From contig CBDEGZ010000003.1 in assembly GCA_965238175.1 (NCBI GenBank), positions 1,472,001 to 1,536,000 on the forward strand: a stretch of 64,000 nt of DNA, in the 5' to 3' direction. The DNA is from Gammaproteobacteria bacterium (lineage in GTDB: Bacteria > Pseudomonadota > Gammaproteobacteria > CAJXQU01). This document shows, in pieces, positions 11,519 to 42,679 of the stretch. Below the pieces are notes generated by a model, which saw only the letters and a program-made list of their open reading frames with translations, did no database searches and had not been told where the DNA came from. Both the position numbers and the translations under genes were made by a program. The number at the start of each line of letters is the position of its first letter. Within the stretch, counting starts at the first letter, position 1.

Positions 11519-11621
11519 TTTTTAAGCTCACTTTATCAAAGAGTTTGACAGCGCAGTGCTGCAACGGTAACTTTCCTAGGATTACTCCCACGATAAATAT
11601 AACAGAGACAGTTACAGCGAA

Positions 11622-12800: not shown

Positions 12801-12807
12801 GGTTTTA

Positions 12808-14118: not shown

Positions 14119-14135
14119 GGTTTATAAACAAACCC

Positions 14136-15608: not shown

Positions 15609-15813
15609 CTTATAAAAATATGATTATTAAATTATTAAATAGTCTTTTTCTTCAGGAACACCGTTTAATCAATGTAACGCAAATGTAACTTTCAGTGTCA
15701 ATAGTGTGACAAGGTTGACATTAAGTAAGACGTTCTGTATAAATTGTTGGCGTTGATAACGTATTTTATCCACAGTGGATTACAAGGATTGTAAACACAT
15801 TTTCAAGGAGGAA

Positions 15814-16191: not shown

Positions 16192-16283
16192 CTTAAGTAA
16201 AATTGGTGTTAAGAGTACGACCTCAAGGAAGAGGAAAACTCATAGCAAATTAATAGTAATTGAAATTTATCACGGATTGATAC

Positions 16284-20829: not shown

Positions 20830-20892
20830 GTAATAAGGAACTAAAGTTTAAGCAATAATGTCTGATTTATACGAATTAAGGTAATAATAGGA

Positions 20893-22332: not shown

Positions 22333-22564
22333 ACTGATTTCAAGTGCGAATACAGAATTGGAAGTGAGCTTGCTTAATGATGTCTCGGGTGAGTTTAAGC
22401 AATCTTTAATCGAAAAGCTTAATCTTGAGAGCAACAGGATAAATCAATATCTTACGAAAGGTCTTTTGCCTGAGCAATATCAAAAATATAGCGCCTTAGT
22501 AAATGCTATTAATCAATCAATAAAAACAATCGAAAATGTGTGGGTAAGATTTCATGGAGAATAG
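22325..22564 (+). CDS. YscE/SsaE-family needle co-chaperone
   Basis: ~79 aa helical; ELEVSLLND..GLLPEQYQ..L..AI pattern; directly after sctD. Confidence 0.75.
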   Translation: MNELISSANTELEVSLLNDVSGEFKQSLIEKLNLESNRINQYLTKGLLPEQYQKYSALVNAINQSIKTIENVWVRFHGE

Positions 22565-22568
22565 AATT

Positions 22569-22979
22569 ATGGAACCAGTACAAAAAAGTAACGATCAAAA
22601 TTCTCAAATGGCAATCGAAGTTGATAAAATGTTTTTTAAAACACTCTCACAAATTGGTTATATGGCGTGTATGAAGGGTATGCCAACCGAAGGTGAAATG
22701 ATTATGGAAAGCCTGGCTGGTTTGAAATCTGAGAATTCAGCAATTTTATTAGGGTTAGCGTTTTCAAAAATCACAATGATGAAATTTACCGATGCAGAAA
22801 AGGTAATCCGTGGAGTACTTGATAAGGACGCCAAGAATTTAACAGCAAAATGTTTTCTGGGTATTACACTGTTTGGTTTAGGTGATAGAAAACAAGCACA
22901 AGTTTACTTTGCTGATGTTCTGGCATTGGGTAATGATGATGAAAAAGCCATTGCCAAAGCTTATATGTCAGTAGAATAA
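22569..22979 (+). CDS. YscG/SsaH/EscG-like TPR needle chaperone
   Basis: TPR-like helices (LSQIGYMAC, AILLGLAF, AKCFLGITL); adjacent to the YscE-like gene. Confidence 0.65.
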   Translation: MEPVQKSNDQNSQMAIEVDKMFFKTLSQIGYMACMKGMPTEGEMIMESLAGLKSENSAILLGLAFSKITMMKFTDAEKVIRGVLDKDAKNLTAKCFLGITLFGLGDRKQAQVYFADVLALGNDDEKAIAKAYMSVE

Positions 22980-23004
22980 TTAAATTAAAGTAGAGGTATC
23001 TAAA

Positions 23005-23628
23005 ATGATAGAAGCAATTGAAGCAGCAACTGCATATAGTCAGACGCTAGATGTTAGCCAGTTATCACCAGGACAGACAACACAGCTAGACGCATCTCAT
23101 CAAAATATCGCGACGATTATTCAGCAGGCCGAAATGTTAGATCAAAATGGTGGAATAAACCAGCTTCCAAACGCCATCGAAACAAGTTCTTTGAAAAATA
23201 TTGGTGAGGAGCAAAGCTTTGGAGATAAGTTGTTCGGCAGAGTTTCAATGATGGATGGCAAATATACTGATATTATGGATCGCATGAAGAACGATTGGCC
23301 AGGTTATGGCAAAAACTTGGCAGAAAGAGGTGTATCTCTAAAGCAAGGATTAGAGAGTGGTGGAGGGATCACTCATATTTCAAATATCGGCAAAGGTGCC
23401 GAGGTTGGTAAACCTCAAACTCTTGAAGAAACAGTCAGCAATAGAATAGAACAAATGGAGCAATTTCGATCGAAGCAGGCTACATTTCAAGCTGCAGCTA
23501 TTCAAGCCGCACAAGATACAACATTTTGGTCTATGAGTGCAAAGATGTGGATGACAAAAGTGCAGGTTTTGACATCTGCAGTTTCTCAAATCAGTACTGG
23601 TTTCAGAACGTTATTCAACGCGCAGTAA
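23005..23628 (+). CDS. Probable T3SS inner rod SctI (long variant)
   Basis: C-terminus LTSAVSQISTGFRTLFNAQ resembles YscI/HrpB2/EscI; N-terminus MIEAIEAA. Confidence 0.6.
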   Translation: MIEAIEAATAYSQTLDVSQLSPGQTTQLDASHQNIATIIQQAEMLDQNGGINQLPNAIETSSLKNIGEEQSFGDKLFGRVSMMDGKYTDIMDRMKNDWPGYGKNLAERGVSLKQGLESGGGITHISNIGKGAEVGKPQTLEETVSNRIEQMEQFRSKQATFQAAAIQAAQDTTFWSMSAKMWMTKVQVLTSAVSQISTGFRTLFNAQ

Positions 23629-23785: not shown

Positions 23786-25011
23786 TGTAGAAGTTTAGAC
23801 CCAATCTGACACATCACTAAATCAAGCGGAGCGTAGCGACGCTTGATTTAGTGAGAGTTACCCGCTTTGATGTAACTGCAACGTAAACATCAAAACACAA
23901 AGAGGTAACTCTCATGATTCATACTAATGACAAAGTTATAAAACATAAAGTTGGTCTACTCAATCTCGCTGAAGAACTCGGCAATGTCTCAAAAGCCTGC
24001 AAGATGATGGGTTTGTCCAGAGATACATTTTATCGCTACAAAGAAGCGGCTGATGAAGGCGGTGTAGAAGCCTTGTTTGATCGTAATCGGCGTACCCCAA
24101 ATCTTAAAAACAGAATCGACCCGGCTATTGAAACCGTTGTGCTCGAGTATGCACTGGAAGAGCCCGCACATGGTCAAACGCGCACCAGTAACGAGCTGCG
24201 CAAACGGGGAACATTTGTCTCACCCAGTGGCGTTCGTTGTATCTGGCTTCGTCATGGTCTTGCTTGCTTTAAAGATCGCCTGAAGGCATTGTCTGATAAG
24301 GTAGCTGGTGAAGGCTTGATCCTCACTGAGTCTCAAGTCGCGGCGATGGAACGCAAGAAAGACGACGATGAGGCTTGTGGCGAGATAGAGACGGCACACC
24401 CTGGTTATCTTGGCTCGCAAGATACTTACTATGTCGGTACTTTCAAAGGCATTGGTCGGGTTTATCAACAAACGTTTGTTGATACTTACAGCAAGGTCGC
24501 TCACGCGAAACTGTACCCGACTAAAACACCGATTACGGCAGCTGACATGCTCAATGACCGCGTCCTCCCATTCTACGAAGAACAACGTTTGCCTATGTTG
24601 CGCATTTTGACAGATAGAGGGACGGAGTATTGTGGGCGAGCTGACCAGCATGATTATCAGCTTTATATGGCGTTGAACAATATCGAACACACCAAAACCA
24701 AGGTCAAATCACCTCAGACGAATGGTATTTGTGAGCGATTCCATAAGACGATCCTCAATGAGTTTTATCAAGTCGCTTTGCGTAAGAAAATTTACCAATC
24801 GATTGATGAACTGCAACTCGACCTTGACGAATGGTTGCTCAAATACAATACTCAACGAACTCACCAAGGCAAAATGTGCTGCGGGAGGACGCCGATGGAA
24901 ACACTCATCGACGGACAAGCTATCTGGAAGGAAAAGTTTGTGAATTAAACTTAACCTGACAGTCGGTTACTGATAATTGGGTAACTGTCAGATCAAATCT
25001 GAATTTCTACA
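23786..25011 (+). mobile_element. Complete IS481-family insertion sequence (1226 bp)
   Basis: 26-bp imperfect TIRs TGTAGAAGTTTAGACCCAATCTGACA / TGTCAGATCAAATCTGAATTTCTACA; 7-bp direct repeat CATGATT at 23779-85 and 25012-18. Confidence 0.93.
23914..24948 (+). CDS. IS481-family DDE transposase
   Basis: HTH (GNVSKACKMMGLSRDTFYRY) plus rve core (GSQDT, LTDRGTEY, PQTNGICERFH). Confidence 0.95.
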   Translation: MIHTNDKVIKHKVGLLNLAEELGNVSKACKMMGLSRDTFYRYKEAADEGGVEALFDRNRRTPNLKNRIDPAIETVVLEYALEEPAHGQTRTSNELRKRGTFVSPSGVRCIWLRHGLACFKDRLKALSDKVAGEGLILTESQVAAMERKKDDDEACGEIETAHPGYLGSQDTYYVGTFKGIGRVYQQTFVDTYSKVAHAKLYPTKTPITAADMLNDRVLPFYEEQRLPMLRILTDRGTEYCGRADQHDYQLYMALNNIEHTKTKVKSPQTNGICERFHKTILNEFYQVALRKKIYQSIDELQLDLDEWLLKYNTQRTHQGKMCCGRTPMETLIDGQAIWKEKFVN

Positions 25012-25831: not shown

Positions 25832-26569
25832 TTAACCCGAATGCAGGTTAGTTGAGCAGGATGCTATTTTCTGGTGATCCTGCTTATTCAATGCGGGTAA
25901 TTTTTTTGCAAGAATACGTAGAAGTTTAACAGGCGTATGCCTGAAATAGCCTAACAAGACTTCTGAGCTAGAATTACCTATTTTGTGTCCATCAACTCGT
26001 AGTTGTTGCAATTGAGAGTTGAGTTGCGGCTCATAATGTCTAAGACAGCCGATCAAATAATAGGCTGATGAGTAATTTTTAGAACCAATATAACTTGGCG
26101 ATATCTTAATATTTAAATTTTTGACGAAATTAATAGAAAACTCAGTTGCCAACCCTTCTTCTAGTGCATTCCCATTTCCAACAATCGGTGACAGTGTGTG
26201 AAAAACCTCGTGTCCCAGTTGAAACAAAGCGCGTTTTTTCTCCAGCATAGCCTCCCTTGTTAGTTGTATGACAACATGTTCTTGGTTTCCGGGAAACCAG
26301 ATCTGTGGTGCAGGATTATCGCTAAACTCATAACCTAAAATTGTGTAGTCTTTATCACGTGGGCCGATAATAGCTTCGGCTTGTACAATAGCTCTTCCGA
26401 TAAAAGTTGCTAATGTGTAGGTATACAGACACTCTACTTGATCCTCGCAAGTGGTCGTTTTCACTAGTGACGATAGAATTGGTTGTTGACTTTCGGCAAC
26501 GCTAGATAAAGAAGTAAGAGTAAATAATAAAGCTGTTAATCTTAAGAAAAAGAGTCGCATTCTGATCAC
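25832..26569 (-). CDS. Exported hypothetical protein with HEXXH zinc-peptidase motif
   Basis: Sec-type signal peptide; FQLGHEVFH and downstream LEEGLA. Confidence 0.7.
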   Translation of the reverse strand: MIRMRLFFLRLTALLFTLTSLSSVAESQQPILSSLVKTTTCEDQVECLYTYTLATFIGRAIVQAEAIIGPRDKDYTILGYEFSDNPAPQIWFPGNQEHVVIQLTREAMLEKKRALFQLGHEVFHTLSPIVGNGNALEEGLATEFSINFVKNLNIKISPSYIGSKNYSSAYYLIGCLRHYEPQLNSQLQQLRVDGHKIGNSSSEVLLGYFRHTPVKLLRILAKKLPALNKQDHQKIASCSTNLHSG

Positions 26570-26575
26570 CTGAAT

Positions 26576-27214
26576 TTAAAAAAGTTTAGCCGCCTCTATT
26601 GCAGCTTGCGTTCGATTATTGACACCTAATATTCGAAAAATTGCCGTACAGTGTATTTTTACCGTAGGCAAAGCCATATCAAGTTCACGGGCAATTTGTT
26701 TATTTGAATGGCCTTGGTGAATCAGATGTAAAACTTCGATTTGGCGTTTTGTTAATCCGCTCTCATCAATTTCGTTATTATTTAACTGGACAGGTAGTTC
26801 ATTAATTTTTGTATCAACTTCTATTTCAAAGTTGATTGCAGGACAGACTATTTCTCCCTTAAGAATTCTACCAATAACATGGCTAACAGTTCGCCATGTA
26901 AAATTAGTCGAGACGCAACCATTAGCACCGCGTGAAACGGTTGTACGAATTTGATCACTTGTTTCAAAATCACCAACAACTAAAATAGGTATATTTGGGA
27001 GACCAGCATGAAGTTGTTCAAGAATAGCCCAGCCATCCTTCGTTAAATCCATGTAAAGAACGATCAAATCATAGGCTTCAGATGTTTTTTGCTCAGAGAG
27101 AGCAGATTGAAATTTAGTTGCTTCATATACATATGCGTTTTCATCATATTCTTTGATCAAATTACAAAGACTATTACTGAAAAGTGCATACTGACAGATA
27201 ACAATTGCTTTCAT
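26576..27214 (-). CDS. NarL/LuxR-family transcription factor with atypical receiver domain
   Basis: LuxR HTH LTKRQIEVL..GHSNKQIARELDMALPTVKIH..LGVNNRTQA; overlaps the sctU stop. Confidence 0.9.
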   Translation of the reverse strand: MKAIVICQYALFSNSLCNLIKEYDENAYVYEATKFQSALSEQKTSEAYDLIVLYMDLTKDGWAILEQLHAGLPNIPILVVGDFETSDQIRTTVSRGANGCVSTNFTWRTVSHVIGRILKGEIVCPAINFEIEVDTKINELPVQLNNNEIDESGLTKRQIEVLHLIHQGHSNKQIARELDMALPTVKIHCTAIFRILGVNNRTQAAIEAAKLF

Positions 27215-28260
27215 ATTTCAGGGTTAAGTTGATTCAAATAGTTTGCTGTTTTCGTAACAGCATGACCTGGGATTGATCCATCAATAAAACCTTCTTCATC
27301 GAAAATCTGTGTCAGTTCATTATCATGAATTATCGGAATATGATCTGTTTCTGCGACATCGATCATTCGTTTCAGCATTGCCCCATTTCCTTTACTCAAG
27401 ATGATTGGTAATTCCATATCAGGTTCGTAACATATCGCTATAGCAACATTCGCATAGTCTGTCACAATCATACGAGTTTGTCTCATCCGTTCATCAAAAT
27501 CATCGTTCACAACTTCTAAGAACATTGAACGTCTGGCACCTTTGAGCATTGGATCGCCTTCGGAATTTTTATAATCGCGTTTTGCTTCTTCTTTAGTCAT
27601 TTTTTGACCTTCAAGAAAATAATGTTTTTGTAGTAGAAAATCAAATATGGATAAAAATATTAAAAGGGGTAAGAGTGCCAGAAACATTCTGGTAATCATT
27701 ATTTCTAACAGCGATAAATAACATTCAAGATCACAGTACTCTGTTTTAGCAGGCAAACTCTTAATGGTCTCGATAATAAGGAAAGATGTGATAATGCCAA
27801 TGAAAATGATTTTTGCACATGCCAGCAACGTTTCGCCGACACTTTTCAGAGAAAAAATCTGCCCGGCATTACTTACTGGATTTATTCGTTGAATTTCTGG
27901 TTTTATAGCAAAAAAAGCAAAGATTACTCCAAATTGGCTAACACTTGAGAGTATTATGGCAATAGTAATGATCACTAACAACGGTAAAATAATAAATTTC
28001 AATACGATGGAAAACATATGGATAAGTGCTAATGGAACAGCTTTTTCGAAATCCATTGTATAAAACTGTGAGGGAGATTGGATAATATCAATCAGGTATC
28101 CAAGGATATTGTCCCAATGAACATAAAAGTAAAGTGCCGCTATTAGCATTGACGCAGCAGTAACAATTTCTTTACTTTGGGGGACTTGTCCCTTATCACG
28201 GGATTCCTCCAGCTTACGTTTGGTCGCTTTTTCGGTTTTCTTACTTTTATCTTCAGCCAT
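27211..28260 (-). CDS. sctU: T3SS export switch SctU (NPTH motif absent)
   Basis: KTEKATKRKLEESRDKGQV, INPVSN..IFS, KMTKEEAKRDYKNSEGDP; follows sctRST. Confidence 0.9.
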   Translation of the reverse strand: MAEDKSKKTEKATKRKLEESRDKGQVPQSKEIVTAASMLIAALYFYVHWDNILGYLIDIIQSPSQFYTMDFEKAVPLALIHMFSIVLKFIILPLLVIITIAIILSSVSQFGVIFAFFAIKPEIQRINPVSNAGQIFSLKSVGETLLACAKIIFIGIITSFLIIETIKSLPAKTEYCDLECYLSLLEIMITRMFLALLPLLIFLSIFDFLLQKHYFLEGQKMTKEEAKRDYKNSEGDPMLKGARRSMFLEVVNDDFDERMRQTRMIVTDYANVAIAICYEPDMELPIILSKGNGAMLKRMIDVAETDHIPIIHDNELTQIFDEEGFIDGSIPGHAVTKTANYLNQLNPEI

Positions 28261-28277
28261 TTATGAAGACTCCTTTT

Positions 28278-29063
28278 CTATTGCAAGATCTTCATCAAGA
28301 GATCAGGTAAAAATTCTATCGATAGGATTTTATTTCTAATAAAGACCAAAATAGTACCGAGGTATAAAGCCAATACAAAAAGTACCACAGTACTTTTAAT
28401 CGGTATAGCGAGCAGGAATACGTTGACCGTTGGGACGAAGCGACCCATTAAACCCATTGAAAGTTCGGTTAGAAACATGATCAAAACAAAGGGAGCTGCC
28501 ATTAATAGTGCAAGGGCTAGAATGTTATCAAAATGTTGTAGAAGAATAGTAGCAGTCTCTATATTTAATTGAGGGTAATAGGAAGTTACTGGCCAGATGA
28601 CATAGGTTTGATAGATGACTGTCAACAGGGCGAGGAAGCCACCCACTGAAAAAAATAATACAGCTATGACTTGGGCAAAAAATGATCCTAAAAGTGAAGT
28701 TTGCCCACCAATAACAGGAGAAAACAATTGGGCAGTCAGAGCACCACGTTGCAAATCAATTATTTCACCCATTGATGCAACAGCCCAAAAAATGATGGCT
28801 GCTACATATCCGATGAGCAATCCCAGAACAGCTTCTTTAACAATCACGAGGATAAACAAAAGTCCATTAACTTCCACGACAGATAATTGTTTTGAAACTA
28901 CCGGTAAAATTATAACTGATAATATGATCGCAACACCGTTTCTGGCCGTTGTAGAAATGAGTTGACGACGAAAAAAAGGTAGTACCATAAAAATTATCAA
29001 AAATCGGGGAAGCGTTACTGTTAAAACTAATAACCAATGCTGTCCTGCAGAAATTATGTCCAT
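28278..29063 (-). CDS. sctT: T3SS export apparatus SctT
   Basis: KEAVLGLLIG, GEIIDLQRG, GRFVPTVNVF..PIKS. Confidence 0.93.
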   Translation of the reverse strand: MDIISAGQHWLLVLTVTLPRFLIIFMVLPFFRRQLISTTARNGVAIILSVIILPVVSKQLSVVEVNGLLFILVIVKEAVLGLLIGYVAAIIFWAVASMGEIIDLQRGALTAQLFSPVIGGQTSLLGSFFAQVIAVLFFSVGGFLALLTVIYQTYVIWPVTSYYPQLNIETATILLQHFDNILALALLMAAPFVLIMFLTELSMGLMGRFVPTVNVFLLAIPIKSTVVLFVLALYLGTILVFIRNKILSIEFLPDLLMKILQ

Positions 29064-29087
29064 GATGTTTAGGTCGTAACGATATGG

Positions 29088-29363
29088 TTAATGAGTCACT
29101 GTTGAGATCATTACGTACATTTGATCTGTAAACAGCATTAACTCGCGGCCCATCCAGTGAGCCGTAAATAGTATTACGATGATAGCCCCGACTAATTTTA
29201 GACCGAATGCCAGGGTTTGATCTTGTATCTGCGTCAAAGCCTGAAATAAACCAACTAAAAGTCCAATAACAGTCGCAGCTATTGTAACCGGTAGCGAAAG
29301 ATATAAAACCAATAGCAGGCTTTGAGAAGCAAAATGAATAATCTGTTCTTCATTCATATCCAA
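29088..29363 (-). CDS. sctS: T3SS export apparatus SctS
   Basis: GLLVGLFQALTQIQDQTLAFGLKL. Confidence 0.94.
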   Translation of the reverse strand: MDMNEEQIIHFASQSLLLVLYLSLPVTIAATVIGLLVGLFQALTQIQDQTLAFGLKLVGAIIVILFTAHWMGRELMLFTDQMYVMISTVTH

Positions 29364-29372
29364 TTACCGTGA

Positions 29373-30029
29373 CTAGACATAACTTAAAACCAGGCCATGA
29401 ATTAAACGTGTCCAACCATCAGCCATAACGAATAATAAAATTTTAAAGGGTAAAGAGATTAATATCGGTGACATCATGATCATCCCCATTGCGAGCAGGA
29501 TGTTTGCTATTACTATGTCAATAACGATAAAAGGCAGATAGACGAGAAAACCAATCTGAAACGCAGATTTCAATTCGCTTAGGACGAAAGAAGGCATTAA
29601 TACGAGAATATGTCGGTCATCCATATTGACTGCCTGGTCGTCAGGCCAGAGACGGCTTGTTGTGGAGACAAAAAATTCGCGTTCATCCTTGTCAGAATGG
29701 CGAGCAAGAAAATTTTTGATCGGTTCAAGACCACCGCCAATAGCATCATGGAGTTTAGGGTTTTGTAAATCGTTTATTTCTACATTGTGAGATTTGAACG
29801 CATCTATAGATGCAACTCCGACGGGAGCCATGATAAACAATGACAAGATTATGGCTAACCCATTAATGGCCATTGTGGGTGGAGCTTGTTGTAAGCCGAT
29901 AGCGTTACGCAGGATAAACATAACGACAACGATTTTGAGATATGAACTGACCATGATTGCAAGAAACGGTGCAAGAGCCAGGATAGATAATCCGCCTAAT
30001 AGTAGAAGGGGATTTGGTAATGCATCCAT
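29373..30029 (-). CDS. sctR: T3SS export apparatus SctR
   Basis: LRNAIGLQQAPP, SELKSAFQIGF, ISLPFKILLFV..DGW; no signal peptide (unlike FliP). Confidence 0.95.
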   Translation of the reverse strand: MDALPNPLLLLGGLSILALAPFLAIMVSSYLKIVVVMFILRNAIGLQQAPPTMAINGLAIILSLFIMAPVGVASIDAFKSHNVEINDLQNPKLHDAIGGGLEPIKNFLARHSDKDEREFFVSTTSRLWPDDQAVNMDDRHILVLMPSFVLSELKSAFQIGFLVYLPFIVIDIVIANILLAMGMIMMSPILISLPFKILLFVMADGWTRLIHGLVLSYV

Positions 30030-30032
30030 ACT

Positions 30033-31142
30033 TTATTTACCTAAAAATGATTTTAAACGAACTCCTGTTGTGCCTTCGATGTTAACTATTTCACCAATAC
30101 CTAATAATTGACCATTACTAAAAATATGAACTGACTTATCTATCGGTTTATCTAACGAAAATATATAGCCAGGACTAAGTGCTTTCACTTGAGAAATTGG
30201 TAATGAAACACTTCCAAGTTCGAATTCTAACTTAACGTTAATTTCGTCAATAAAATTCAATTCTTGATCTAGACCCTCTTGATAGCGGCGGTTAGGCTTG
30301 TTTTCTTTATGTTTGTCTTTTCCAGAGCTCTCTTCTGACATTTCAATATCCTTTTTAAATTGATTTGGTATTTTATCAACAATCAAAATATCCTCTTTCT
30401 CGGACGATTCCGAATCTGATTTTTTCAGCTTCAATGTTAAATGGAGACGATCAGAAATCGTCGCCATCACTCTGTTCTCATCTCCAAAAATATCTTGATC
30501 GAAAAGAACCACATCACCAGTTTCCAGGCTGTACAACTCTGAAGATGTCAGTATTGATGAACCAATAAGAAGCTGGGTGTTAAGACTAAGTTGTTCAAAA
30601 TCATTTGTTGATGTGGCCTGATGTTGAAGTAACTGTACTAATTCAGCGGAACTATCGCTATTAACTTTAATTGTTCCTGTCGCAATTTGCCCCGATTCTG
30701 ATGTCAAATGATAGTATAAAACGTAGGGATCAGAGAAAATATAAGGTTTAGCCAATTGTATTTCCTTTTCGACGGCATCAAACAAGATGGGTTTCTCATC
30801 AATAATATTCTCTATCCAGTGAAGAACTGGTGAAAGTAAGACCTTACTCGTAAGTTTTCTTACCACACGAGATCGTGAGCGTAACAAAGGAATGACATCA
30901 AGATTATTTTTCTTAATAAATTCGGGCCATTGATTTATCGTGATGATAAAAGTCGAATTACCAGATTTAAGAATAGTGGCGTACTCAGGTTGAGCGGCAT
31001 TTTCCTCATTTTCTAACGATAAATGTAGTTTATAGTTTTGACCATCAATTTTAATATCCACAGGTGAAGCATAGGCAGAGATTAAATTATTCACCGTCAA
31101 TACAGACTTATTTATACATGGAAACTCGGCTAAAGTATTCAT
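30033..31142 (-). CDS. sctQ: T3SS cytoplasmic ring SctQ
   Basis: Two SPOA domains (LETGDVVL; LEFELG..GEIVNIEGTTGVRL). Confidence 0.85.
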   Translation of the reverse strand: MNTLAEFPCINKSVLTVNNLISAYASPVDIKIDGQNYKLHLSLENEENAAQPEYATILKSGNSTFIITINQWPEFIKKNNLDVIPLLRSRSRVVRKLTSKVLLSPVLHWIENIIDEKPILFDAVEKEIQLAKPYIFSDPYVLYYHLTSESGQIATGTIKVNSDSSAELVQLLQHQATSTNDFEQLSLNTQLLIGSSILTSSELYSLETGDVVLFDQDIFGDENRVMATISDRLHLTLKLKKSDSESSEKEDILIVDKIPNQFKKDIEMSEESSGKDKHKENKPNRRYQEGLDQELNFIDEINVKLEFELGSVSLPISQVKALSPGYIFSLDKPIDKSVHIFSNGQLLGIGEIVNIEGTTGVRLKSFLGK

Positions 31143-31144
31143 CT

Positions 31145-31735
31145 TTAAAATGGACCTCCATCAGAACTCGTGTGATCAAGATCGATGTTAGTACGGAAAA
31201 TATCTTCCAGCTGAGCTATTTTTTGATCAGCATTGACATGCACCACACCCATTTCAGATTCGATTATGCAATCATCTTTCTCAATACGATGATCAGCTAC
31301 CACATTAACTTTTCCAGACAAGGATTCTATATCTCTTAATCTAAGTAAGGTTTTATGAGGAATGCTTGGCGAAATTCTAAGTGTGATTTCTCGTGCGTTA
31401 GATAATTCAGATAAACTTTGCTGCACTGATTGAACTAAAAATTCATCAGGCTCGTAGTTTGCAACAATTTTCCTAATATTATTCAAGACAACATCAACAA
31501 TGTCATTCTCTAATTGTTGAACGTAATCAATAGAGTCAGAAACAAGTGATAAAGATTCTGCAAGCGCTTGAGATTTTGCATCCTCTTGTCCTTGAATCAA
31601 TCCTTTTTTATAGGCAATTTTGCAGATTGTTTCTGCGTAGGCCAGGATATCTTCTGCTTTTTGCTGATTCGAATCATTAGTTTGAACAGACTCAAGTATC
31701 TCGTCTACATCATTAGATTTAATTATATTCTTCAT
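31145..31735 (-). CDS. sctL: T3SS stator SctL (YscL/FliH family)
   Basis: AYKKGLIQGQEDA GxxxG repeat, C-terminal DCIIESEMGVV. Confidence 0.85.
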   Translation of the reverse strand: MKNIIKSNDVDEILESVQTNDSNQQKAEDILAYAETICKIAYKKGLIQGQEDAKSQALAESLSLVSDSIDYVQQLENDIVDVVLNNIRKIVANYEPDEFLVQSVQQSLSELSNAREITLRISPSIPHKTLLRLRDIESLSGKVNVVADHRIEKDDCIIESEMGVVHVNADQKIAQLEDIFRTNIDLDHTSSDGGPF

Positions 31736-32447
31736 GGATCACTCCTTGATCAAGGGTCGAGGTATTTTCAGTTTTTACATGGATTGAATTATGCTCAAAA
31801 TGATCCGTTAATAACCTTATTAATTCCACACAATTTGATTTCTTATAAGCAGTCATTTGATTTCGATTAGACAAATAAGAAAGACTATTTTTTCCAAGCT
31901 TTAATATAAGGCGAGTTACCAGTGCCTTGCTTTCATTGTTGAGCGCTCGACCTAAAACAATTAGTCCATTAGCAAAAACTTGTGTCTTTAATGGCTTTTT
32001 CATATCGAATCTAACCTGAGTTAAATTTGGAATTTGGCGACACATAGTCGTTGCTTCATGAATAGCGAAGATATACATATCGGTACCGAGTTGATTTTTA
32101 AACTCTATAACATCGCTCTTCATAATCGTTTGTTTTATTTGATCACAAACGGATACTACACCGAGTAACATAACAAACTTTGATAACTCAAGAGGAGATA
32201 ACAAACTTATTTTTTGTGTAGGAGTCTTAAATTTCAGAAGAGGAGTATCTTTCAATTTAAAATGTTCCAGAACTATTTTTGAGACAGCAACTTCAGCTTC
32301 AGTTTTATGGCTAAGGATCCTGAGTTCTTTTCCATCCTTTATGTTTTCCCACCAGCTGTCGTGTAGATACCGGGTGGGTAAAAAGTTCAGAACATAAGAC
32401 TTATCAAATATTTTCTCAGTCATTACACCCACCTTAGATAGATCCAT
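31719..32447 (-). CDS. Probable sorting-platform protein SctK
   Basis: Lies between sctJ and sctL; FLPTRYLHDSW and RLILKL motifs resemble YscK/OrgA. Confidence 0.65.
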   Translation of the reverse strand: MDLSKVGVMTEKIFDKSYVLNFLPTRYLHDSWWENIKDGKELRILSHKTEAEVAVSKIVLEHFKLKDTPLLKFKTPTQKISLLSPLELSKFVMLLGVVSVCDQIKQTIMKSDVIEFKNQLGTDMYIFAIHEATTMCRQIPNLTQVRFDMKKPLKTQVFANGLIVLGRALNNESKALVTRLILKLGKNSLSYLSNRNQMTAYKKSNCVELIRLLTDHFEHNSIHVKTENTSTLDQGVIHEEYN

Positions 32448-33318
32448 TAACAGTTTGTCGTACTGACGCCTTTTTCCTTGAGCTTACGGGTGCTTGATTT
32501 TTATCATTTACCTTCTTAACAAGTAGGCCAATAATAACCAGCATTACAAGAAAAAATATTACAAACAGGCTAATAATAAAACGAATTGTAGTTGCAGATT
32601 CTGTTGGAACACGAACACCTGAAACACTGGTCCAGCGAGACGAGGTTTCATCAGATTCTATTGAGTTAGTTGCAGGCAGAATGACGACAGATATCTTGTC
32701 GTACGTTAAACCCTCGATACTTTTCTCAACAATAAATTTGATCTCGGATTTGAAATCTTCAAGATTGCTATTTGCTAAGGATTTAATAAAAACAGAAGCT
32801 GAAGATGGCTTTATATCTTCATTAAAAGGATTATTCTCAGGTAAAACGATATGAACTCGTGCGGTGACAACACCATCAATACGTGACAAGGTCTCTTGAA
32901 CTTCTTGCTTTAAGGCATAGATATATCTAACGCGTTCTTCAATAGGTGAGGAAATCAGCCCTTTTTTGTCAAAAAGATCAGTCACCTTCACAAAAGTTTC
33001 TCTTGGAAAGCCCTTTTGTTTCAATAAAGACAACGCAGAAGGGACTTGTGATTTTTCGATATGTATTGAAAGTGTTTTATCTTTCTTATCGACAACCTTG
33101 TCTGTACTTACCCCATTACTTAACAGGATTGCCATCATCTGATTTGCATCTTCTTCACTTAAATTAGTGAATAAAGGCTCTTTACACGAACTAAGAACCA
33201 ACAACAACATGAAAGCAGAAAAAAGCTTGACCAAACACACACGATCTAATTTTGGGGAAGATAGTGATATATAACGACTGTAACATTCCATATTCATAAC
33301 CGGACTCCTTTCCGACAA
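32434..33318 (-). CDS. sctJ: T3SS inner-ring lipoprotein SctJ
   Basis: Lipobox LSSC, LSEEDANQM, GLISSPIEE, IDGVVTARVHIVLP, SASVFIK, C-terminal TM. Start codon uncertain. Confidence 0.95.
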   Translation of the reverse strand: MSERSPVMNMECYSRYISLSSPKLDRVCLVKLFSAFMLLLVLSSCKEPLFTNLSEEDANQMMAILLSNGVSTDKVVDKKDKTLSIHIEKSQVPSALSLLKQKGFPRETFVKVTDLFDKKGLISSPIEERVRYIYALKQEVQETLSRIDGVVTARVHIVLPENNPFNEDIKPSSASVFIKSLANSNLEDFKSEIKFIVEKSIEGLTYDKISVVILPATNSIESDETSSRWTSVSGVRVPTESATTIRFIISLFVIFFLVMLVIIGLLVKKVNDKNQAPVSSRKKASVRQTVNGSI

Positions 33319-33620: not shown

Positions 33621-33866
33621 ATGGTCGGCAGCGTAGACATTAGTGATTTAACATTAAAGCAGTTACTGCACTTCTATCAAGATGCTGTTACTGCGGGTAA
33701 TAACCAGCCTTTTAAACAGAGAAGTCAATCAGAAACTAAAATGACTGACCAACAGGATATAAAGAAATTTTCTGAGGCCATGGATAATCCATCTGATACC
33801 CAACCCAAGGTTGATCAAAGTCTTGCTAATATTGTGGATGATCTAATTAAAATAATCGGTGAATAA
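33621..33866 (+). CDS. Small hypothetical protein OrfA1 (paralog of 39628-39873)
   Basis: Shares DLTLKQLL..Y, QQDI.KFS and DQ.L..IVD.LIK.IG with 39628-39873. Confidence 0.75.
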   Translation: MVGSVDISDLTLKQLLHFYQDAVTAGNNQPFKQRSQSETKMTDQQDIKKFSEAMDNPSDTQPKVDQSLANIVDDLIKIIGE

Positions 33867-33897: not shown

Positions 33898-34090
33898 GAG
33901 AACCTGACAAATTCTCAGGAAGCTTCTAAAACAAGTATAGACTTTGTTTAAAGCGCTGTAATACCAAGGAACTAATCCACAAGAACAATGTCTTTAGCAT
34001 TTTCTTTCTCCTATAATGACGCCCAGCGGTTTTGTGATAGGAATCTATAACCGTTACGTTAAGGGTAAAACAAAATAAACATTAAGGAGA
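33898..34090 (+). promoter_or_regulatory. Island promoter/leader block, copy 1
   Basis: GAGAACCTGACAAATTCTCAGGAAGCTTC...CCACAAGAACAATG..ATTTTCTTTCTCCTATAAT (-10 at 34012-17); homologous to 35602-35860. Confidence 0.75.
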
Positions 34091-34096: not shown

Positions 34097-34318
34097 ATGG
34101 GAATTGGAATTGGAGTAGCTATAGCAATGGATTTTATTCAAGGCATAGGAAAGCTTATTCAGAATGCCCAAAATCAAAAAACAGAACAGATGGAAGCGGA
34201 GCAGGGGATGCGAAATACGGCTTCTAAGGCGATGGATTCTGTAATGGCAAAGATTGCTGAAGTTAGTGAGGCAATTGGAGGTGTTACAGATCGACAATCA
34301 GAACGAGCTGGTAGCTAA
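34097..34318 (+). CDS. Small helical protein, candidate T3SS pilin/needle subunit 1
   Basis: 73 aa, strong SD AAGGAGA, no Cys/Trp, helical C-half similar to 35902-36126. Confidence 0.6.
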   Translation: MGIGIGVAIAMDFIQGIGKLIQNAQNQKTEQMEAEQGMRNTASKAMDSVMAKIAEVSEAIGGVTDRQSERAGS

Positions 34319-34562: not shown

Positions 34563-34790
34563 ACTAACAAGCGTACGCAGTTACTGTACTTTTATCAAAA
34601 TACTGCTCTGTAGGTAACAATCAGCTTTCTTAAACAGGGCCGTCAATCTAGTTAAAGACTAAAACGACTGACCAACAGGATGTAAAGAAATTTCTGAGAT
34701 CATGGATAGACCCTCTAATATTCAACCCAGGGTTGATCAGGATCTTGCTAATATTGTGGATGATCTAATTAACAATGATCGGTGAACAAG
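34563..34790 (+). pseudogene. Degenerate copy of OrfA1
   Basis: Nucleotide similarity to 33645-33866 (GCAGTTACTG, GACTGACCAACAGGAT, CTTGCTAATATTGTGGATGATCTAATTAA) with indels. Confidence 0.85.
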
Positions 34791-34814
34791 CCTGGTTTCA
34801 GTTTAAATATTTAA

Positions 34815-35450
34815 GGGGCTGACCCAGATAATATAATTTTTTGTATTATCTGAGTATGAGAAAAGTCGATTAAATCAGTATAAACAGAATCGTTGGTTGA
34901 ACTATTTAATTGCTTGAACAGCGGCCTCATTGGTCAATGAAAATACAAAAGCGGCGGTCTATTATTTTTAGCCGTTACAAGAAGTGATTTATAAGCACCA
35001 TGACAGGGTCGAACAACCTGAACTCAGGATAAGGAAAAACAGTTTGTCCTATTAATTGAATTGGTTAGTTTTTAGATGTAAGGCTTCGATACGGAGATCC
35101 TTCGCAAAAGCTCAGGATGACAGAGTAAAACGGTCATTCTGACGACTTTAGGAGGAAGAATCTCAGGAACGAAGCCTTTAAACTGCTTGTTTTCCATGGA
35201 CAACAATAGCCAAATTCTTATCCCGGGTTCAGATTACTTAAACGCAATGGGCAAGGTGTTGCAGGCATGACACCTGACGCGAAGGCAAAGATGTTGATGC
35301 CGAATATTCGCCGAAAAATCAAGCCAGATAGCTTCGTGTATACGGATTGTTGGAAAAGCTATAATAGACTTTGATGTTTCAAAATTTAAGCACTATCGTA
35401 TTAATTATAATGAGTTGATTGCTGATAAACAAAATCACATAAAATGAACT
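34815..35450 (+). mobile_element. IS1595-family (IS1016-like) transposase remnant, interrupted
   Basis: GGGGCTGA end; fragments RLNQYKQNR, LLKRNG, IRRKIKPDSFVYTDCWKSY, FKHYRIN..QNHI with frameshifts. Confidence 0.8.
35015..35235. mobile_element. MITE-like element, copy 2, inserted in the IS1016 remnant
   Basis: TIRs AACCTGAACTCAGGATAAG / CTTATCCCGGGTTCAGATT; internal inverted pair GAGATCCTTCG..CTCAGGATGAC / GTCATTCTGA..GAAGAATCTC at 35094-35164. Confidence 0.65.
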
Positions 35451-35601: not shown

Positions 35602-35860
35602 GAGAATCTGACAAATTCTCAGGAAGCTTCGGCTTTAAACCATACAAACAAGCAATACCCACCTAGTGACTATCAGGCTGCTAAGTTAGTTTCTAAACAC
35701 AAATATAGATCTTTGTTTAACGTACTAATAATACAAAAGTATTAGTCCACAAGAACAATGTTTTTAATATTTTCTTTCTCCTATAATTACGTCCAGAGGT
35801 TTGAGAAAGGAATCTAAAACCAATCCTCTTAGAGGTAAAACAACTAAGTAAACATTAAGT
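35602..35860 (+). promoter_or_regulatory. Island promoter/leader block, copy 2
   Basis: Homologous to 33898-34090; -10 TATAAT at 35782-87; inverted repeat ACTAATA-N9-TATTAGT. Confidence 0.75.
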
Positions 35861-35901: not shown

Positions 35902-36126
35902 ATGTTTGGTATTTTTGAAGGTTTAATTCAAGGGCAAGAGCAACGACAGGCACAATCTCTTGCGGCTCAATCTAGAATACAACAGTCGAGTCAAGATCAT
36001 GAAGCAATGTCATCTATGATGAAATTGGAATTTGATGTGGTAATGGCGACGATTGAAAGATTAGCTTCTGTCGGCGAGAAAGTTGCAAATCTTACAGAAA
36101 CACAATCACAGCAACTTGCTAACTAA
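35902..36126 (+). CDS. Small helical protein, candidate T3SS pilin/needle subunit 2
   Basis: 74 aa, SD AAGGAGA, Q/S/A-rich helix; DVVMATI..TETQSQQ resembles DSVMAKI..TDRQSER of 34097. Confidence 0.6.
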   Translation: MFGIFEGLIQGQEQRQAQSLAAQSRIQQSSQDHEAMSSMMKLEFDVVMATIERLASVGEKVANLTETQSQQLAN

Positions 36127-36221
36127 TTAAGCAGTTATCGATAGAAATAATTTATAAATTATATATTTAAAAGAAATAGCTAATAAATTAAATTATAAAA
36201 ATAACTAAATGAATTAAATTA

Positions 36222-36254
36222 AGGTGCTAACGAAAAAGTTAGCACCTATTTTTT
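36222..36254 (+). terminator. Intrinsic terminator/attenuator between the pilin-like ORF and the collagen gene
   Basis: AGGTGCTAAC-GAAAAA-GTTAGCACCT followed by ATTTTTT. Confidence 0.8.
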
Positions 36255-36273
36255 AAATTCAATAAATAATTTC

Positions 36274-36312
36274 AAGAATTAATCAGGTTAAATAAGAATT
36301 AATCAGGTTAAA
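36274..36312 (+). repeat. Tandem 19-bp direct repeat before the collagen gene RBS
   Basis: AAGAATTAATCAGGTTAAA at 36274 and 36294. Confidence 0.85.
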
Positions 36313-36325: not shown

Positions 36326-39289
36326 ATGAACGGAGTAACCGGAGCAGGGCCAGGACCAAGCGTATACAATCTACCCAAAGATGGACAAGGAGGCTTTGCA
36401 ACCAAACAAGGAGGCTTTGCAACCAAAGAGGGTCGCAACGGACCAGGAATAGGGCCAAATGGGCAAGCTGGATCATTTTACTCAGGCTTTATCCCAGCAG
36501 GACAACCAGGAACACCAGGATCACCAGGATCACCAGGACGACCAGGAGTCGGATCACCAGGATCACCAGGACGACCAGGAGTCGGATCACCAGGATTACC
36601 AGGACGACCAGGAACACCAGGAACACCAGGAACACCAGGACAACAAGGGGTCGGACCAACAGGAGCACCAGGAGCACCAGGAAACCCAGGATTTGGAAAC
36701 CCAGGAACCCCTGGTCAGAATGGAAACCCTGGACAGCCAGGTCAGCGAGGACCAACAGGATATGGAAACCCAGGAACCCCTGGACAGAATGGAAACCCTG
36801 GAAACCCAGGTCAGCTTGGACCCCAAGGATTCCGAGGAAACCCAGGTCAGCTTGGACCCCAAGGATTCCGAGGAAACCCTGGTCAGAATGGAAACCCTGG
36901 ACAGCCAGGTCAGCGAGGACCAACAGGATATGGAAACCCAGGAACCCCTGGACAGAATGGAAACCCTGGAAACCCAGGTCAGCTTGGACCCCAAGGATTC
37001 CGAGGAAACCCTGGTCAGAATGGAAACCCTGGACAGCCAGGTCAGCTTGGACCCCAAGGATTCCGAGGAACCCCTGGTCAGAATGGAAACCCTGGACAGC
37101 CAGGTCAGCGAGGACCAACAGGATATGGAAACCCAGGAACCCCTGGTCAGAATGGAAACCCTGGACAGCCAGGTCAGCGAGGACCAACAGGATATGGAAA
37201 CCCAGGAACCCCTGGACAGAATGGAAACCCTGGAAACCCAGGTCAGCTTGGACCCCAAGGATTCCGAGGAACCCCTGGTCAGAATGGAAGCCCTGGACAG
37301 CCAGGTCAGCGAGGACCAACAGGATATGGAAACCCAGGAACCCCTGGACAGAATGGAAACCCTGGACAGCCAGGTCAGCGAGGAGCAACAGGATACCCTG
37401 GTGCTCCTGGTATAGGAACCCCTGGTCGGAATGGAACCCCTGGTCAGCTTGGACCCCAAGGATTCCGAGGAAACCCTGGTCCGCAAGGACGAACAGGATA
37501 CCCTGGTGCTCCTGGTATAGGAACTCCTGGTCGGGATGGTCAGCCAGGAGCCCAAGGAGCCTCTGGTCGGGATGGTCAGCCAGGAGCCCAAGGAGCCTCT
37601 GGTCGGAATGGTCAGCCAGGAGCCCAAGGAGCCTCTGGTCGGGATGGTCAGCCAGGAGCCCAAGGAGCCTCTGGTCGGAATGGTCAGCCAGGAGCCCAAG
37701 GAGCCTCTGGTCGGGATGGTCAGCCAGGAGCCCAAGGAGCCTCTGGTCGGGATGGTCAGCCAGGAGCCCAAGGAGCTACAGGTGCTACAGGTGTAGGACA
37801 AATAGGTGCTTCAGGCGAAGGTTTCATCGAATGGTTCACTAGAGTGGAGGGTGATCAAAATGGAGATGACGTAATAACTAGAGAAGACGTCAGAATCTGG
37901 TTAAGAGGTGATAAAGGTGACACTGGAGCACCTGGAGCAACTGGAGCAACTGGAGCAACTGGAGCAACTGGAGCAACTGGAACACCTGGAGCAACTGGAC
38001 AAGCCGGAGCGAAAGGTGACAGAGGTGATAGAGGTTACAATGGAGCACCTGGAGCAACTGGACAAGCCGGAGCGAAAGGTGACAGAGGTGATAGAGGTTA
38101 CAATGGAGCACCTGGAGCAACTGGACAAGCCGGAGCGAAAGGTGACAGAGGTGATAGAGGTTACAATGGAGCACCTGGAGCAACTGGACAAGCCGGAGCG
38201 AAAGGTGACAGAGGTGATAGAGGTTACAATGGAGCACCTGGAGCAACTGGACAAGCCGGAGCGAAAGGTGACAGAGGTGATAGAGGTTACAATGGAGCAC
38301 CTGGAGCAACTGGACAAGCCGGAGCGAAAGGTGACAGAGGTGATAGAGGTTACAATGGAGCAACTGGAGCAACTGGAGCACCTGGAGCACCTGGAGCAAC
38401 TGGACAAGCCGGAGCGAAAGGTGACAGAGGTGATAGAGGTTACAATGGAGCACCTGGACGAGATGGTGAGCGAGGTGAGCGAGGTGAGCGAGGTAGGAAT
38501 GGCTACAATGGTCGAGATGGTCAGCCTGGTAGGAATGGCGGACATGGCGGATATGGCCCAGTAGGTCGTCCGGGACCAAGTGGTCCGAGTCCAAGTGGTC
38601 CGTATCCAAGTGGTCCGAACCCAAGTGGTCCGAGACCAAGTGGTCCGAACCCAAGTGGTCCAGGTACAAGCCCAACACGCCCGACAAGCCCGAGCCCAGC
38701 ATGTGCAAATGATAATGGTAGGTTTAGTCAGCAGCTGGAACAGCTTACACAACTTCTTAGCCGACTCACTGAATTACTCAGTAGTTTCTCAGGTGGCGGG
38801 AATGGCGGGAAAGGTGGTGGTTACCCAAGCACAGGTGGTGGTTACCCAGGATCAGCAGGACCAGCAGGATCGCCAGGTGAAAGAGGTTACCCAGGATCAG
38901 CAGGACCAGTAGGACCAGTAGGACCGCGAGGTTACAATGGTATGGACGGTAGGGACGGCATGATAGGACCACCGGGACCAGCAGGACCACCGGGACCAGC
39001 AGGACCAGCAGGACCAGCAGGACCAGCAGGATCGCAAGGTGAAAGGGGTTACCCAGGACCAGCAGGACCAGCAGGATCGCAAGGTGAAAGGGGTTACCCA
39101 GGACCAGCAGGACCAGCAGGATCGAAAGGTGGCGGTGGTGGCTACTCTCATAGCACGGGGAGATCATCAACATTTGATACAATAAATAATGTACTGAGAA
39201 CCTTGGCGCCTATTTCGAATGTGATCGAAGGTTTGATCAATGCGTTCAGCGGCGGTGGCTCGCGGTCTCATAGTGGGGGTGGTTATTAA
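36326..39289 (+). CDS. Collagen-like (Gly-X-Y repeat) protein with harpin-like helices; no Sec signal
   Basis: 987 aa, mostly G-X-Y triplets in several repeat blocks; SD AAGGAGA; non-collagen islands near aa 495-530, 770-830 and 935-987. Confidence 0.92.
36500..39125 (+). repeat. Coding tandem-repeat arrays (9-, 36-, 63-bp and longer units)
   Basis: 36-bp units at 37528-37775; 63-bp [21 protein letters not shown] units x7 at ~37990-38455; 15-bp GPxPS units at 38573-38660. Confidence 0.95.
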
Positions 39290-39627: not shown

Positions 39628-39873
39628 ATGACTGAAAACTCTAATCTTGGTGATTTAACTCTGAAACAGCTTTTACAGCTGTATAAGGTGCCTGCACCTG
39701 CAAGAGGTGAAGGGGAGTTAGAAGGAAACGTTCCTGCAAGTCAGCAGCAGGAAGATATTGATAAGTTTTCTTCTATAACATCTGATAGATCGGTTGGTTC
39801 TTCTCTAGACGATAAAATTGATCAAAATCTTGTGCGCATTGTTGATAACTTGATCAAAAGTATTGGTTCATAA
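39628..39873 (+). CDS. Small hypothetical protein OrfA2 (paralog of 33621-33866)
   Basis: SD AGGAG; same length (81 aa) and shared terminal motifs with OrfA1. Confidence 0.75.
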   Translation: MTENSNLGDLTLKQLLQLYKVPAPARGEGELEGNVPASQQQEDIDKFSSITSDRSVGSSLDDKIDQNLVRIVDNLIKSIGS

Positions 39874-42166: not shown

Positions 42167-42679
42167 ATGACCGATGATGTAGTAGATGAAGAACAGGATG
42201 TATCCGCCGATTGGGGTGATGCGCTTGCTGAGCAAGCCGAGGGCGAGGCAGGTGGGGATGCCGATTGGGGTGATGCACTTGCTGAACAAGCTGAAGGTGA
42301 GGCTGTGGGTGGAGATGCTGATTGGGGTGATGCGCTAGCAGAACAGGCAGAGTCAGAAGCTGCTGAGGCGAGTCCCGCAGGTTTACAACAACTGACATCT
42401 GATGCTGGTGAGGTTGCAGAGGGGAACTTAGAACAAATTCTTGATATTCCAGTTACGCTCGGAGTAGAGATCGGGAGTACCAAAATTGCGATACGAAATT
42501 TACTCCAGCTAAATCAAGGTTCGGTTGTTGAACTTGATCGGCTTGCGGGCGAACCATTGGATGTGGTGGTTAATGGGACATTGGTAGCGCATGGAGAAGT
42601 TGTGGTTGTAAATGAAAAATTTGGTATTCGATTAACGGATGTTATTAGTGCACAAGAACGGGTTAAAAAACTTAGATAA
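42167..42679 (+). CDS. fliN: Flagellar motor switch FliN
   Basis: ILDIPV, LLQLNQGSVVELDRLAGEPLD, GEVVVVNEKFGIR. Confidence 0.96.
   Translation: MTDDVVDEEQDVSADWGDALAEQAEGEAGGDADWGDALAEQAEGEAVGGDADWGDALAEQAESEAAEASPAGLQQLTSDAGEVAEGNLEQILDIPVTLGVEIGSTKIAIRNLLQLNQGSVVELDRLAGEPLDVVVNGTLVAHGEVVVVNEKFGIRLTDVISAQERVKKLR

Follow-up and report, generated by a model that had tools for sequence, protein, structure and literature searches.

Can a collagen be exported through the type III secretion system (T3SS)? This question is raised by a stretch of 64,000 nucleotides, hereafter called the window, taken from contig CBDEGZ010000003.1 of the assembly GCA_965238175.1 of a Gammaproteobacteria bacterium (genome G000, 3.35 Mb in 3 contigs; the window corresponds to G000:C3:1472001-1536000). 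At the edge of a T3SS island, between the T3SS genes and the flagellar fliL operon, the window carries an open reading frame (ORF) for a 987-amino-acid (aa) collagen-like protein, which an earlier note, made from the sequence alone, had read as a collagen-harpin chimera exported by the T3SS. Our analysis supports the conclusion that the collagen-like gene belongs to the T3SS island. The link is based on its position in the island, its place after the gene that occupies the sctF (needle subunit) position, the fact that within the genus it accompanies the T3SS (in 2 of 2 species with the system, in 0 of 5 without) and a layout conserved in a congener. From these observations we infer that the protein would be secreted by the T3SS, would trimerise and would act outside the cell.

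The collagen-like protein and its domain layout

Upstream of the ATG of the ORF there is an AAGGAG at a distance of 7 nt and an in-frame stop at a distance of 11 codons. The Gly-X-Y arrays that the earlier note had pointed out are present: Pfam Collagen matches the protein at E 8.5e-96 in 9 stretches, and runs of at least 4 Gly-X-Y triplets account for 774 of its 987 residues (258 triplets), the longest unbroken run comprising 76 triplets (aa 528-755). Glycine makes up 31.4 % and proline 14.3 % of the chain, the proline lying chiefly at the Y position. The layout is the following.

36326-39289 (+): whole gene of the 987-aa collagen-like/harpin-like ORF (ORF call, Pfam, composition script)
36326-36499 (+): first 58 aa, rich in Gly and Pro, not hydrophobic, with M-N-G-V-T-G at the start and no acidic residue before position 19
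36500-37798 (+): COL1, aa 59-491, Gly-X-Y runs encoded by 69/132/168/201-nt and 36-nt tandem DNA repeats
37799-37906 (+): non-collagen insert, aa 492-527 (36 aa), with an EF-hand-like loop between short hydrophobic stretches
37907-38590 (+): COL2, aa 528-755, a 63-nt unit repeated 6.3 times with 99 % identity
38591-38839 (+): PSGP-repeat linker, Cys793, amphipathic helix 1 and a Gly-rich linker
~38720-38791 (+): amphipathic helix 1, aa ~799-822 (hydrophobic moment, heptads)
38840-39145 (+): COL3, aa 839-940, 34 Gly-X-Y triplets
39146-39286 (+): C-terminal tail with amphipathic helix 2 and a Gly/Ser-rich end
~39170-39250 (+): amphipathic helix 2, aa ~949-975 (hydrophobic moment, heptads)

The picture of long arrays is refined in COL1, which is discontinuous and shows a one-residue G-X-G break about every 23 residues. 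The pattern of an EF-hand-like 12-residue loop has a single match in the protein, at aa 510-521, and Pfam EF-hand_6 gives E 0.056 and 13.7 bits against a cut-off of 25. The two amphipathic helices are found where the earlier note had placed them and in the Gly-linker setting it had described: they have the highest hydrophobic moments of the whole protein (0.61 and 0.57), their a/d heptad positions are hydrophobic in 7/7 cases for helix 1 and 7/8 for helix 2, and each is followed by a Gly-rich linker.

The DNA repeats underlying the arrays are 98-99 % identical over periods of 36, 63 and 168 nt, which indicates a recent expansion of the arrays. The other reading frames of the gene are also long and open. 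At third codon positions the GC content (GC3) is 0.26, as compared with 0.27-0.31 for the T3SS genes, and is thus host-like; the raised overall GC of the gene is due to its Gly and Pro codons and not to a foreign origin.

The absence of a hydrophobic signal, transmembrane segment or anchor, also claimed in the earlier note, is borne out by the hydropathy profile, in which the 19-residue Kyte-Doolittle mean reaches at most 0.08 within the first 40 windows and 1.12 over the whole chain, and by a pattern scan that finds neither LPXTG nor RTX GGxGxD motifs. No type I secretion, ABC/membrane fusion protein or other exporter genes and no phage genes occur among the window ORFs scanned; those at 46-59 kb lie outside the scans and, judged by size and order alone, are read as flagellar/chemotaxis genes.

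Co-occurrence and conserved layout in the genus

The collagen-like gene is framed by members of two families of small ORFs.

35902-36126 (+): 74-aa ORF directly upstream of the collagen-like gene, needle-position family
34097-34318 (+): 73-aa ORF, a diverged paralogue of the 74-aa one, preceded by a copy of the same promoter-like element
33621-33866 (+): 81-aa ORF, copy 1, acidic family
39628-39873 (+): 81-aa ORF, copy 2, next after the collagen-like gene on its downstream side; shares 38 % identity with copy 1
34662-34800 (+): what remains, with a frameshift, of a third copy of the 81-aa gene; the surrounding 1.5 kb has no long ORFs and includes a transposase-like fragment

Of the 7 species of the genus, two (G000 and G002) have SctD and the 74-aa family, and the collagen-like protein is matched in the same two genomes only, with no match in the five congeners that lack the T3SS. 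The 81-aa family is likewise found in G000 and G002; one additional match, in G003 (E 0.0086), is weak and probably spurious. The hslR-fliL pair is present in all 7 genomes, and its far flank differs in the 3 T3SS-less genomes read.

The congener G002 carries the whole T3SS island in identical order and without insertion sequence (IS). Its sctJ gene is followed by an 83-aa gene, a 78-aa gene and an ORF which passes from a Gly/Ser-rich start (M-S-G-I-S-G) into Gly-X-Y triplets (Pfam Collagen, E 2.1e-10) and runs off the end of the contig. At another contig end we find a Gly-X-Y array (E 3.5e-9), two Q/L/M-rich heptad helices whose a/d positions are hydrophobic in 7/7 and 8/11 cases, GGQ-type linkers and a single Cys, and this 3' fragment is followed by an 80-aa gene, hslR and fliL. 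The two fragments presumably represent one gene. The sole match between the G000 and G002 proteins outside the repeats covers aa 793-839 (49 % identity, E 2.1e-4). That the layout is kept though the sequences are almost unalignable argues for a function and for selection acting on the design.

Searches of proteins, the ESM Atlas and viral contigs revealed nothing related to the non-collagen parts beyond the genus. The sole relative of these parts lies in the same T3SS locus, and not in the phage or other non-T3SS contexts that, according to the earlier note, would have spoken against its reading. The search with residues 756-987 gave 1794 matches among 8000 scored candidates and no full-length relative; the best 120 matches cover 19-57 % of the query, carry Collagen or collagen-associated domains and are taken as COL3-only, as judged from the coverage figures without alignments. 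With the same residues, the ESM Atlas search gave a best score of 0.79 and nothing usable, and 184 pattern matches to the helix-1 segment in viral contigs yielded 0 confirmed relatives. A kinship of helix 2 with the C-terminus of the 81-aa family and one of helix 1 with the 74-aa family were considered and rejected (hhalign probabilities 1.4 % and 0.6 %, respectively). The only sequencing run listed as containing the stretch is of unrecorded kind, and none is on record as RNA, which is evidence neither way.

The needle-position gene and the 81-aa family

The earlier note had remarked that the collagen-like gene follows a pilin-sized ORF. This is the 74-aa ORF, which has a 78-aa orthologue in G002 and whose family members sit at or close to the needle-subunit position of related clusters, the full order sctE-[member]-sctG being seen in G358. 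A profile of the 74-aa, 73-aa and G002 78-aa proteins retrieved 9 members at E<=0.001 among 1.84 billion representative proteins, 3 of them being the query rows. The members measure 66-85 aa among the representatives and 87 aa in G200 by ORF call, and they share a C-terminal motif of the LTDQQSQQI type. In G358 the gene order is sctC(N), sctD, a YscE-like gene (79 aa), the family member (78 aa), a TPR gene (sctG-like), an sctI-like gene (239 aa), a member of the 81-aa family (76 aa), sctJ and sctK. In G200 the member lies between sctD and a 204-aa SctI-like gene, which is followed by a 79-aa ORF and sctJ, and on L075, a metagenome contig, it is flanked by sctD and the TPR gene, a 208-aa SctI-like gene coming next. 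The YscE-like identity comes from the counterparts in G002 (E 2.5e-8) and G106 (E 1.1e-6), which match Pfam T3SS_needle_E above its cut-off; the 79-aa ORF of G358 was assigned by position and by eye only. The Yersinia virC operon has the order E-F-G-(H)-I-J, and the order in the related clusters matches it.

The 74-aa protein has no match in Pfam, T3SS_needle_F included, or in NCBIfam. Its family is devoid of Pro, AlphaFold2 models the protein as one helix (residues 3-73, mean pLDDT 81.6), and a PDB profile search with the family returned only a 43-residue chain named needle co-chaperone at E 0.025. On gene position and predicted fold, the protein is most likely the needle or pilus subunit. 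Since it lacks a needle_F match and Pro and is predicted to form one long helix, it would be closer in style to the Hrp pilins than to the canonical needles.

The 81-aa family (76-83 aa) is acidic, with an N-terminal DLTLKQLL..Y motif and a C-terminal helix, and matches nothing in Pfam, NCBIfam or the PDB; AlphaFold2 gives only a poor model of the 81-aa protein (mean pLDDT 64.5). In G358 and G200 the family sits between the sctI-like gene and sctJ, members being located at L060 1487-1717 (-) and L058 12964-13203, and it is duplicated around the collagen-like gene in both G000 and G002. Copy 2 is kept at the matching place in G002 as the 80-aa gene, with 81 % identity. When the 81-aa alignment was scanned against genome contigs, only two G002 contigs matched, and an initial metagenome scan for further members of the small families found none.

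Two observations concern these small genes and their surroundings. The segment 33621-36126 of the window is a segmental duplication of a module made of an 81-aa gene and a needle-position gene, in which the frameshifted remnant represents the 81-aa gene of the second copy, with transposase-like fragments between the module copies, such as a 35-aa ORF at 35267-35374. On L075, the sctI-like gene is followed by three large ORFs, paralogous to one another, of 717, 737 and 552 aa (11618-18398), whose hydrophobic and Cys-containing N-termini resemble lipoprotein signals, as judged by eye.

The T3SS island

The genes of the secretion machine are distributed over two blocks on opposite strands, and the collagen-like gene is followed downstream by hslR and then the fliL-flhB operon of the flagellum.

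16284-23628 (+): sctV, sctN, sctO, an N-terminal-only secretin gene, sctD (Y4YQ_C), an sctG/CdsG-like TPR gene and a 207-aa gene
25832-33318 (-): a 245-aa unknown, a LuxR-type response regulator, sctU, sctT, (sctS), sctR, sctQ, sctL, sctK and sctJ

The TPR protein matches NCBIfam CdsG, a needle co-chaperone, at E 7.6e-10 and 39.1 bits, well under the curated cut-off of 170, and the gene that corresponds in G002 to the 207-aa gene encodes an SctI-like C-terminus. The secretin ORF (20203-20829, +; 208 aa) matches only positions 2-143 of the 463 of SctC, and N-terminal-only secretins of 216-269 aa occur in five related clusters (L055, L056, L058, L060 and L075). A 289-aa secretin-like ORF present elsewhere in the genome lies among unrelated genes. 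As to the outer-membrane conduit of this T3SS subfamily, no gene for a pore-forming C-domain co-occurs with it within the genus.

The N-terminal-only secretin and the Y4YQ_C domain in SctD fit an Rhc-like T3SS; both are traits that the island shares with the Rhc T3SS of rhizobia and the T3SS-2 of Pseudomonas syringae. A split secretin gene is given as a distinguishing feature of Rhc clusters in PMC3574062. In the table of that paper the Rhc rows show a dash where other families list the gatekeeper-column protein and HpaP/HpaC (PMC3574062). The first dash fits the failure to find Pfam HrpJ in G000; the HpaP/HpaC column, filled in the Hrc-Hrp2 rows, is taken to be SctP, and no sctP ruler gene was recognised among the island ORFs scanned. 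In having no recognised gatekeeper (whole-genome Pfam HrpJ scan) and no ruler among those ORFs, the island also resembles the two systems. It differs from the Rhc T3SS by its YscE- and YscG/CdsG-like needle co-chaperones and by its own needle-position family with the LTDQQSQQI-type motif; no NolX was found either, in a search that is weak.

An IS coding for a helix-turn-helix plus rve integrase protein of 344 aa lies at 23914-24948 (+), between the 207-aa gene and the minus-strand operon. Rfam and tRNA scans of the window find only a tRNA-Ser at 60159. In the flagellar region, an ORF that is FliN-like by position (42167-42679, +), between fliM-like and fliO-like genes, has acidic N-terminal tandem repeats of the DADWGDALAEQAEGEA type, which are also seen in congeners (L064, L070-L072).

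Transcription signals

35746-35787 (+): promoter-like element TCCACAAGAACAATGT-N10-TTTCTTTCTCCTATAAT, upstream of the 74-aa gene
33976-34017: second copy of the promoter-like element, upstream of the 73-aa gene
36222-36247 (+): terminator-like hairpin, 10-bp stem and T-run, between the 74-aa and collagen-like genes
36274-36312 (+): perfect 20-bp direct repeat in 2 copies, just 5' of the ribosome-binding site

These two copies of TCCACAAGAACAATGT-N10-TTTCTTTCTCCTATAAT are the only ones in the 3.35-Mb genome, and the element, being absent elsewhere in the window and genome, links no other operon. A near-identical element precedes the 78-aa gene of G002. In G002, the interval before the Gly-X-Y ORF shows no hairpin, and no promoter-like site is seen there on the same strand. 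Read-through co-transcription of the 74-aa and collagen-like genes is plausible, though unproven. The AT-rich spacer of G000 (36143-36312) also contains a 29-nt tandem repeat in 2.7 copies, and a different 12-bp direct repeat is seen by eye in the equivalent spacer of G002.

Other T3SS loci

In a sample of the class, 9 genomes besides G000 have injectisome-level matches; 8 other T3SS loci, picked by SctJ similarity, were read, G278 being left out. In L057 (genome G320), a 271-aa ORF between a NolX-family gene and HrpB1/HrpB2/sctJ has the harpin style, with a Q/L-rich helix, a Gly/Pro-rich linker, a second Q/L-rich helix and a Gly linker. By comparison, the protein of the window looks like a harpin plan whose linkers would have grown into collagen. 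In L055 (G106), a 408-aa ORF at 6934-8163 (-) has a Q/L/M-rich N-terminal helix of harpin type together with a protein-glutamine gamma-glutamyltransferase (TGL) domain (E 1.6e-19); it is a candidate effector. In an 83-aa antisense ORF of a high-GC locus, 5 or more G-x-x triplets follow one another once, which is regarded as chance.

The NolX-family translocon candidate of G320 (L057 9303-10826) has EF-hand matches (E 4.8e-4). Calcium sensing by extracellular T3SS proteins may merit attention.

Discussion

The model we propose, on which our confidence is evenly balanced, is that of a harpin-like accessory protein exported by the T3SS, whose collagen domains would assemble outside the cell and whose coiled-coil helices would act as registration or trimerisation modules. 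In this protein the Gly-rich linkers of a harpin would have expanded into true collagen-type Gly-X-Y arrays. The chain, devoid of a Sec signal and largely unable to fold as a monomer, would be recognised by the T3SS through its non-acidic, Gly/Ser/Thr-rich N-terminus and would be exported unfolded, either along with the 74-aa needle/pilus subunit or shortly afterwards. Once outside, the heptad helices on both sides of the last collagen domain would associate as coiled coils and set the register of three chains, upon which the Gly-X-Y domains would zip up, giving a long rod of several segments that would be a fibre or adhesin outside the cell, at the needle or close to it. A bolder version, which we hold to be doubtful, is that a true collagen would pass through the T3SS needle as single unfolded chains, which would be brought into register outside by the C-terminal coiled coils and form a segmented triple-helical fibre with a calcium-binding hinge between its collagen domains, extending or decorating the needle as an adhesin.

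The harpins (HrpZ, HrpN, Hpa1/HpaG, PopA) are the nearest model of the proposed protein. They are Gly-rich and almost Cys-free, they have no Sec signal, and their short Q/L-rich amphipathic helices are spaced by Gly-rich linkers, all of which is seen here. They are known as acidic, Cys-free and heat-stable elicitors of plant cell death. Their genes lie in T3SS clusters beside the gene of the pilus or needle subunit, as in the order hrpA-hrpZ-hrpB-hrcJ. An hrpZ operon that contains hrpA is described in PMC3927595. The protein of the window differs from the harpins in that about 78 % of it is Gly-X-Y array and that it is three to seven times longer than harpins as we know them. The harpin likeness claimed in the earlier note holds for the layout, the scarcity of Cys and the T3SS locus, and finds no support in the sequence family and the charge, both of which are taken up below. 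Nor is the insertion of the helices into a membrane, which the note had offered as an alternative to trimerisation, supported. With the bacterial collagens (Scl1/Scl2, Lcl, BclA, Bucl) the protein has in common the long Gly-X-Y arrays, the plasticity of repeat number and non-collagen domains that could trimerise, and it departs from them by scores below the cut-offs, by the lack of signal peptide and anchor and by its T3SS context. EspA is a T3SS-exported coiled-coil filament outside the cell. Together with the Bsp22 tip filament (PMC12607632), it resembles what is proposed here in being a T3SS-exported protein that self-assembles outside through amphipathic or coiled-coil helices and extends the needle. 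The subunits of EspA and Bsp22 are helical, of ~20 kDa, and are not collagen arrays; neither sequence nor fold gives evidence of kinship. As the earlier note had stated, no collagen-like T3SS substrate appears to have been described: none was found in the open-access literature searched, and the nearest case is Bucl4 of Burkholderia, an SctT export-gate protein with a short collagen stretch, which is not a secreted substrate (PMC4565658).

Several observations weigh against the proposed export. In the protein itself, the net charge is +30, one Cys is present (C793, the single Cys counted by the earlier note), and Ser makes up only 4 % of the first 50 residues. Scans with all Pfam models (E<=0.01 for the whole protein, E<=5 for the C-terminal 218 aa) and NCBIfam (E<=1) give no match to harpin, needle, translocator or effector models, only to Collagen, Scl and Lcl. 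At the level of the gene, the terminator-like hairpin parts it from the 74-aa gene in G000, and no sigma-70-like site is found between the two on the + strand. The machine, for its part, has no recognised gatekeeper, translocon or secretin C-domain: Pfam HrpJ is absent from a whole-genome scan of G000; NolX is not found genome-wide, a weak blank as the search matched 0 of 14 control genomes; and no gene for a secretin C-domain tracks the T3SS in the genus (6, 7, 6, 6, 6, 8 and 4 such genes per genome). The canonical Pfam T3SS_needle_F is missing genome-wide at E<=0.1, and the 74-aa family shows no significant relation to the 67-aa gene at the sctF position of G106 and G288 (hhalign probability 1.35 %). 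With an IS inside the island and pseudogene debris just 5' of the collagen-like gene, the machine of G000 may be atypical or decaying. Finally, none of the 8 other T3SS loci has a collagen-array ORF, so that the T3SS link of the gene rests on one genus.

It is unlikely, in our judgement, that the protein is a collagen-like surface or extracellular adhesin which leaves the cell by another route, of the type I-like kind with a C-terminal signal or an unknown one, its gene merely lying beside the island. Bacterial collagen-like proteins are usually adhesins or fibres, and the NCBIfam models SclB (286.7 bits against a curated cut-off of 325), SclA (204.3 against 400) and Lcl (98.9 against 500) are approached from below; the C-terminal amphipathic helix with its Gly-rich tail loosely resembles uncleaved C-terminal signals, and the hairpin separates the gene from the T3SS subunit gene. 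Such an adhesin would nevertheless have neither Sec signal, anchor nor RTX repeats, nor an exporter gene among the window ORFs scanned, and its gene would be found only where a T3SS is present, in 2 of the 7 congeners, flanked on both sides by small genes of T3SS families in both species. We give distinctly less credit to the idea of a non-secreted or functionless product, whether a cytoplasmic protein or a rapidly expanding ORF that the repeats themselves keep open, in a decaying island, although the very recent repeats (98-99 % identical), the long open frames on other readings, the IS and pseudogene debris nearby and the lack of relatives of the non-collagen parts outside the genus would agree with it. 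Against it, two species keep the start, the Gly-X-Y frame, the two heptad helices and the single Cys despite their divergence, and the gene has a strong ribosome-binding site and host-like codon use.

A role inside the machine, for example as a needle-length ruler of the SctP/FliK type in which the number of repeats would set the length, appears very improbable. Rulers are generally long, repetitive and secreted early, the repeats here vary in length, and the island has no recognised sctP; yet no T3S4 (Flg_hook-type) domain comes up in the Pfam scans, that of the C-terminal 218 aa at a threshold as loose as E<=5 included, the gene lies outside the sctO-sctP-sctQ position, the column taken as SctP in the table of PMC3574062 shows a dash in the Rhc rows, and the clusters of G358, G200 and L075 have no such gene in the stretches seen. 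Hardly credible, and the least probable of all, is the chance insertion of a collagen-like tail-fibre gene derived from a phage or another mobile element. Many database matches to collagen repeats do carry phage-fibre-type domains such as Peptidase S74, and IS fragments lie 0.5-2 kb upstream, but no phage genes are present among the window ORFs scanned, the scan of viral contigs confirmed no relative, GC3 matches the host, and the syntenic G002 orthologue has no IS.

Whatever becomes of the collagen-like protein, the island is of interest in itself, as a little-known Rhc-like subfamily with YscE/YscG-type chaperones, a needle-position family of its own and a secretin in which no pore domain can be recognised. 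Should the protein stay inside the cell, it would merely be the product of a fast-evolving repeat gene in one uncultured-looking gammaproteobacterial genus. If the proposed model is true, a protein able to form a triple helix would cross an export channel of roughly 2 nm in unfolded form and assemble only outside the cell, and the T3SS would have a helper that forms fibres and belongs neither to the needle, tip or translocon nor to the classical harpins. Harpins could then evolve by the expansion of their Gly-rich linkers into structured repeat arrays. Among known T3SS substrates such a protein would be the first collagen, and it would represent a novel appendage of the needle, and its secretion by the T3SS would join the fields of collagen and of type III secretion, which have not met so far.

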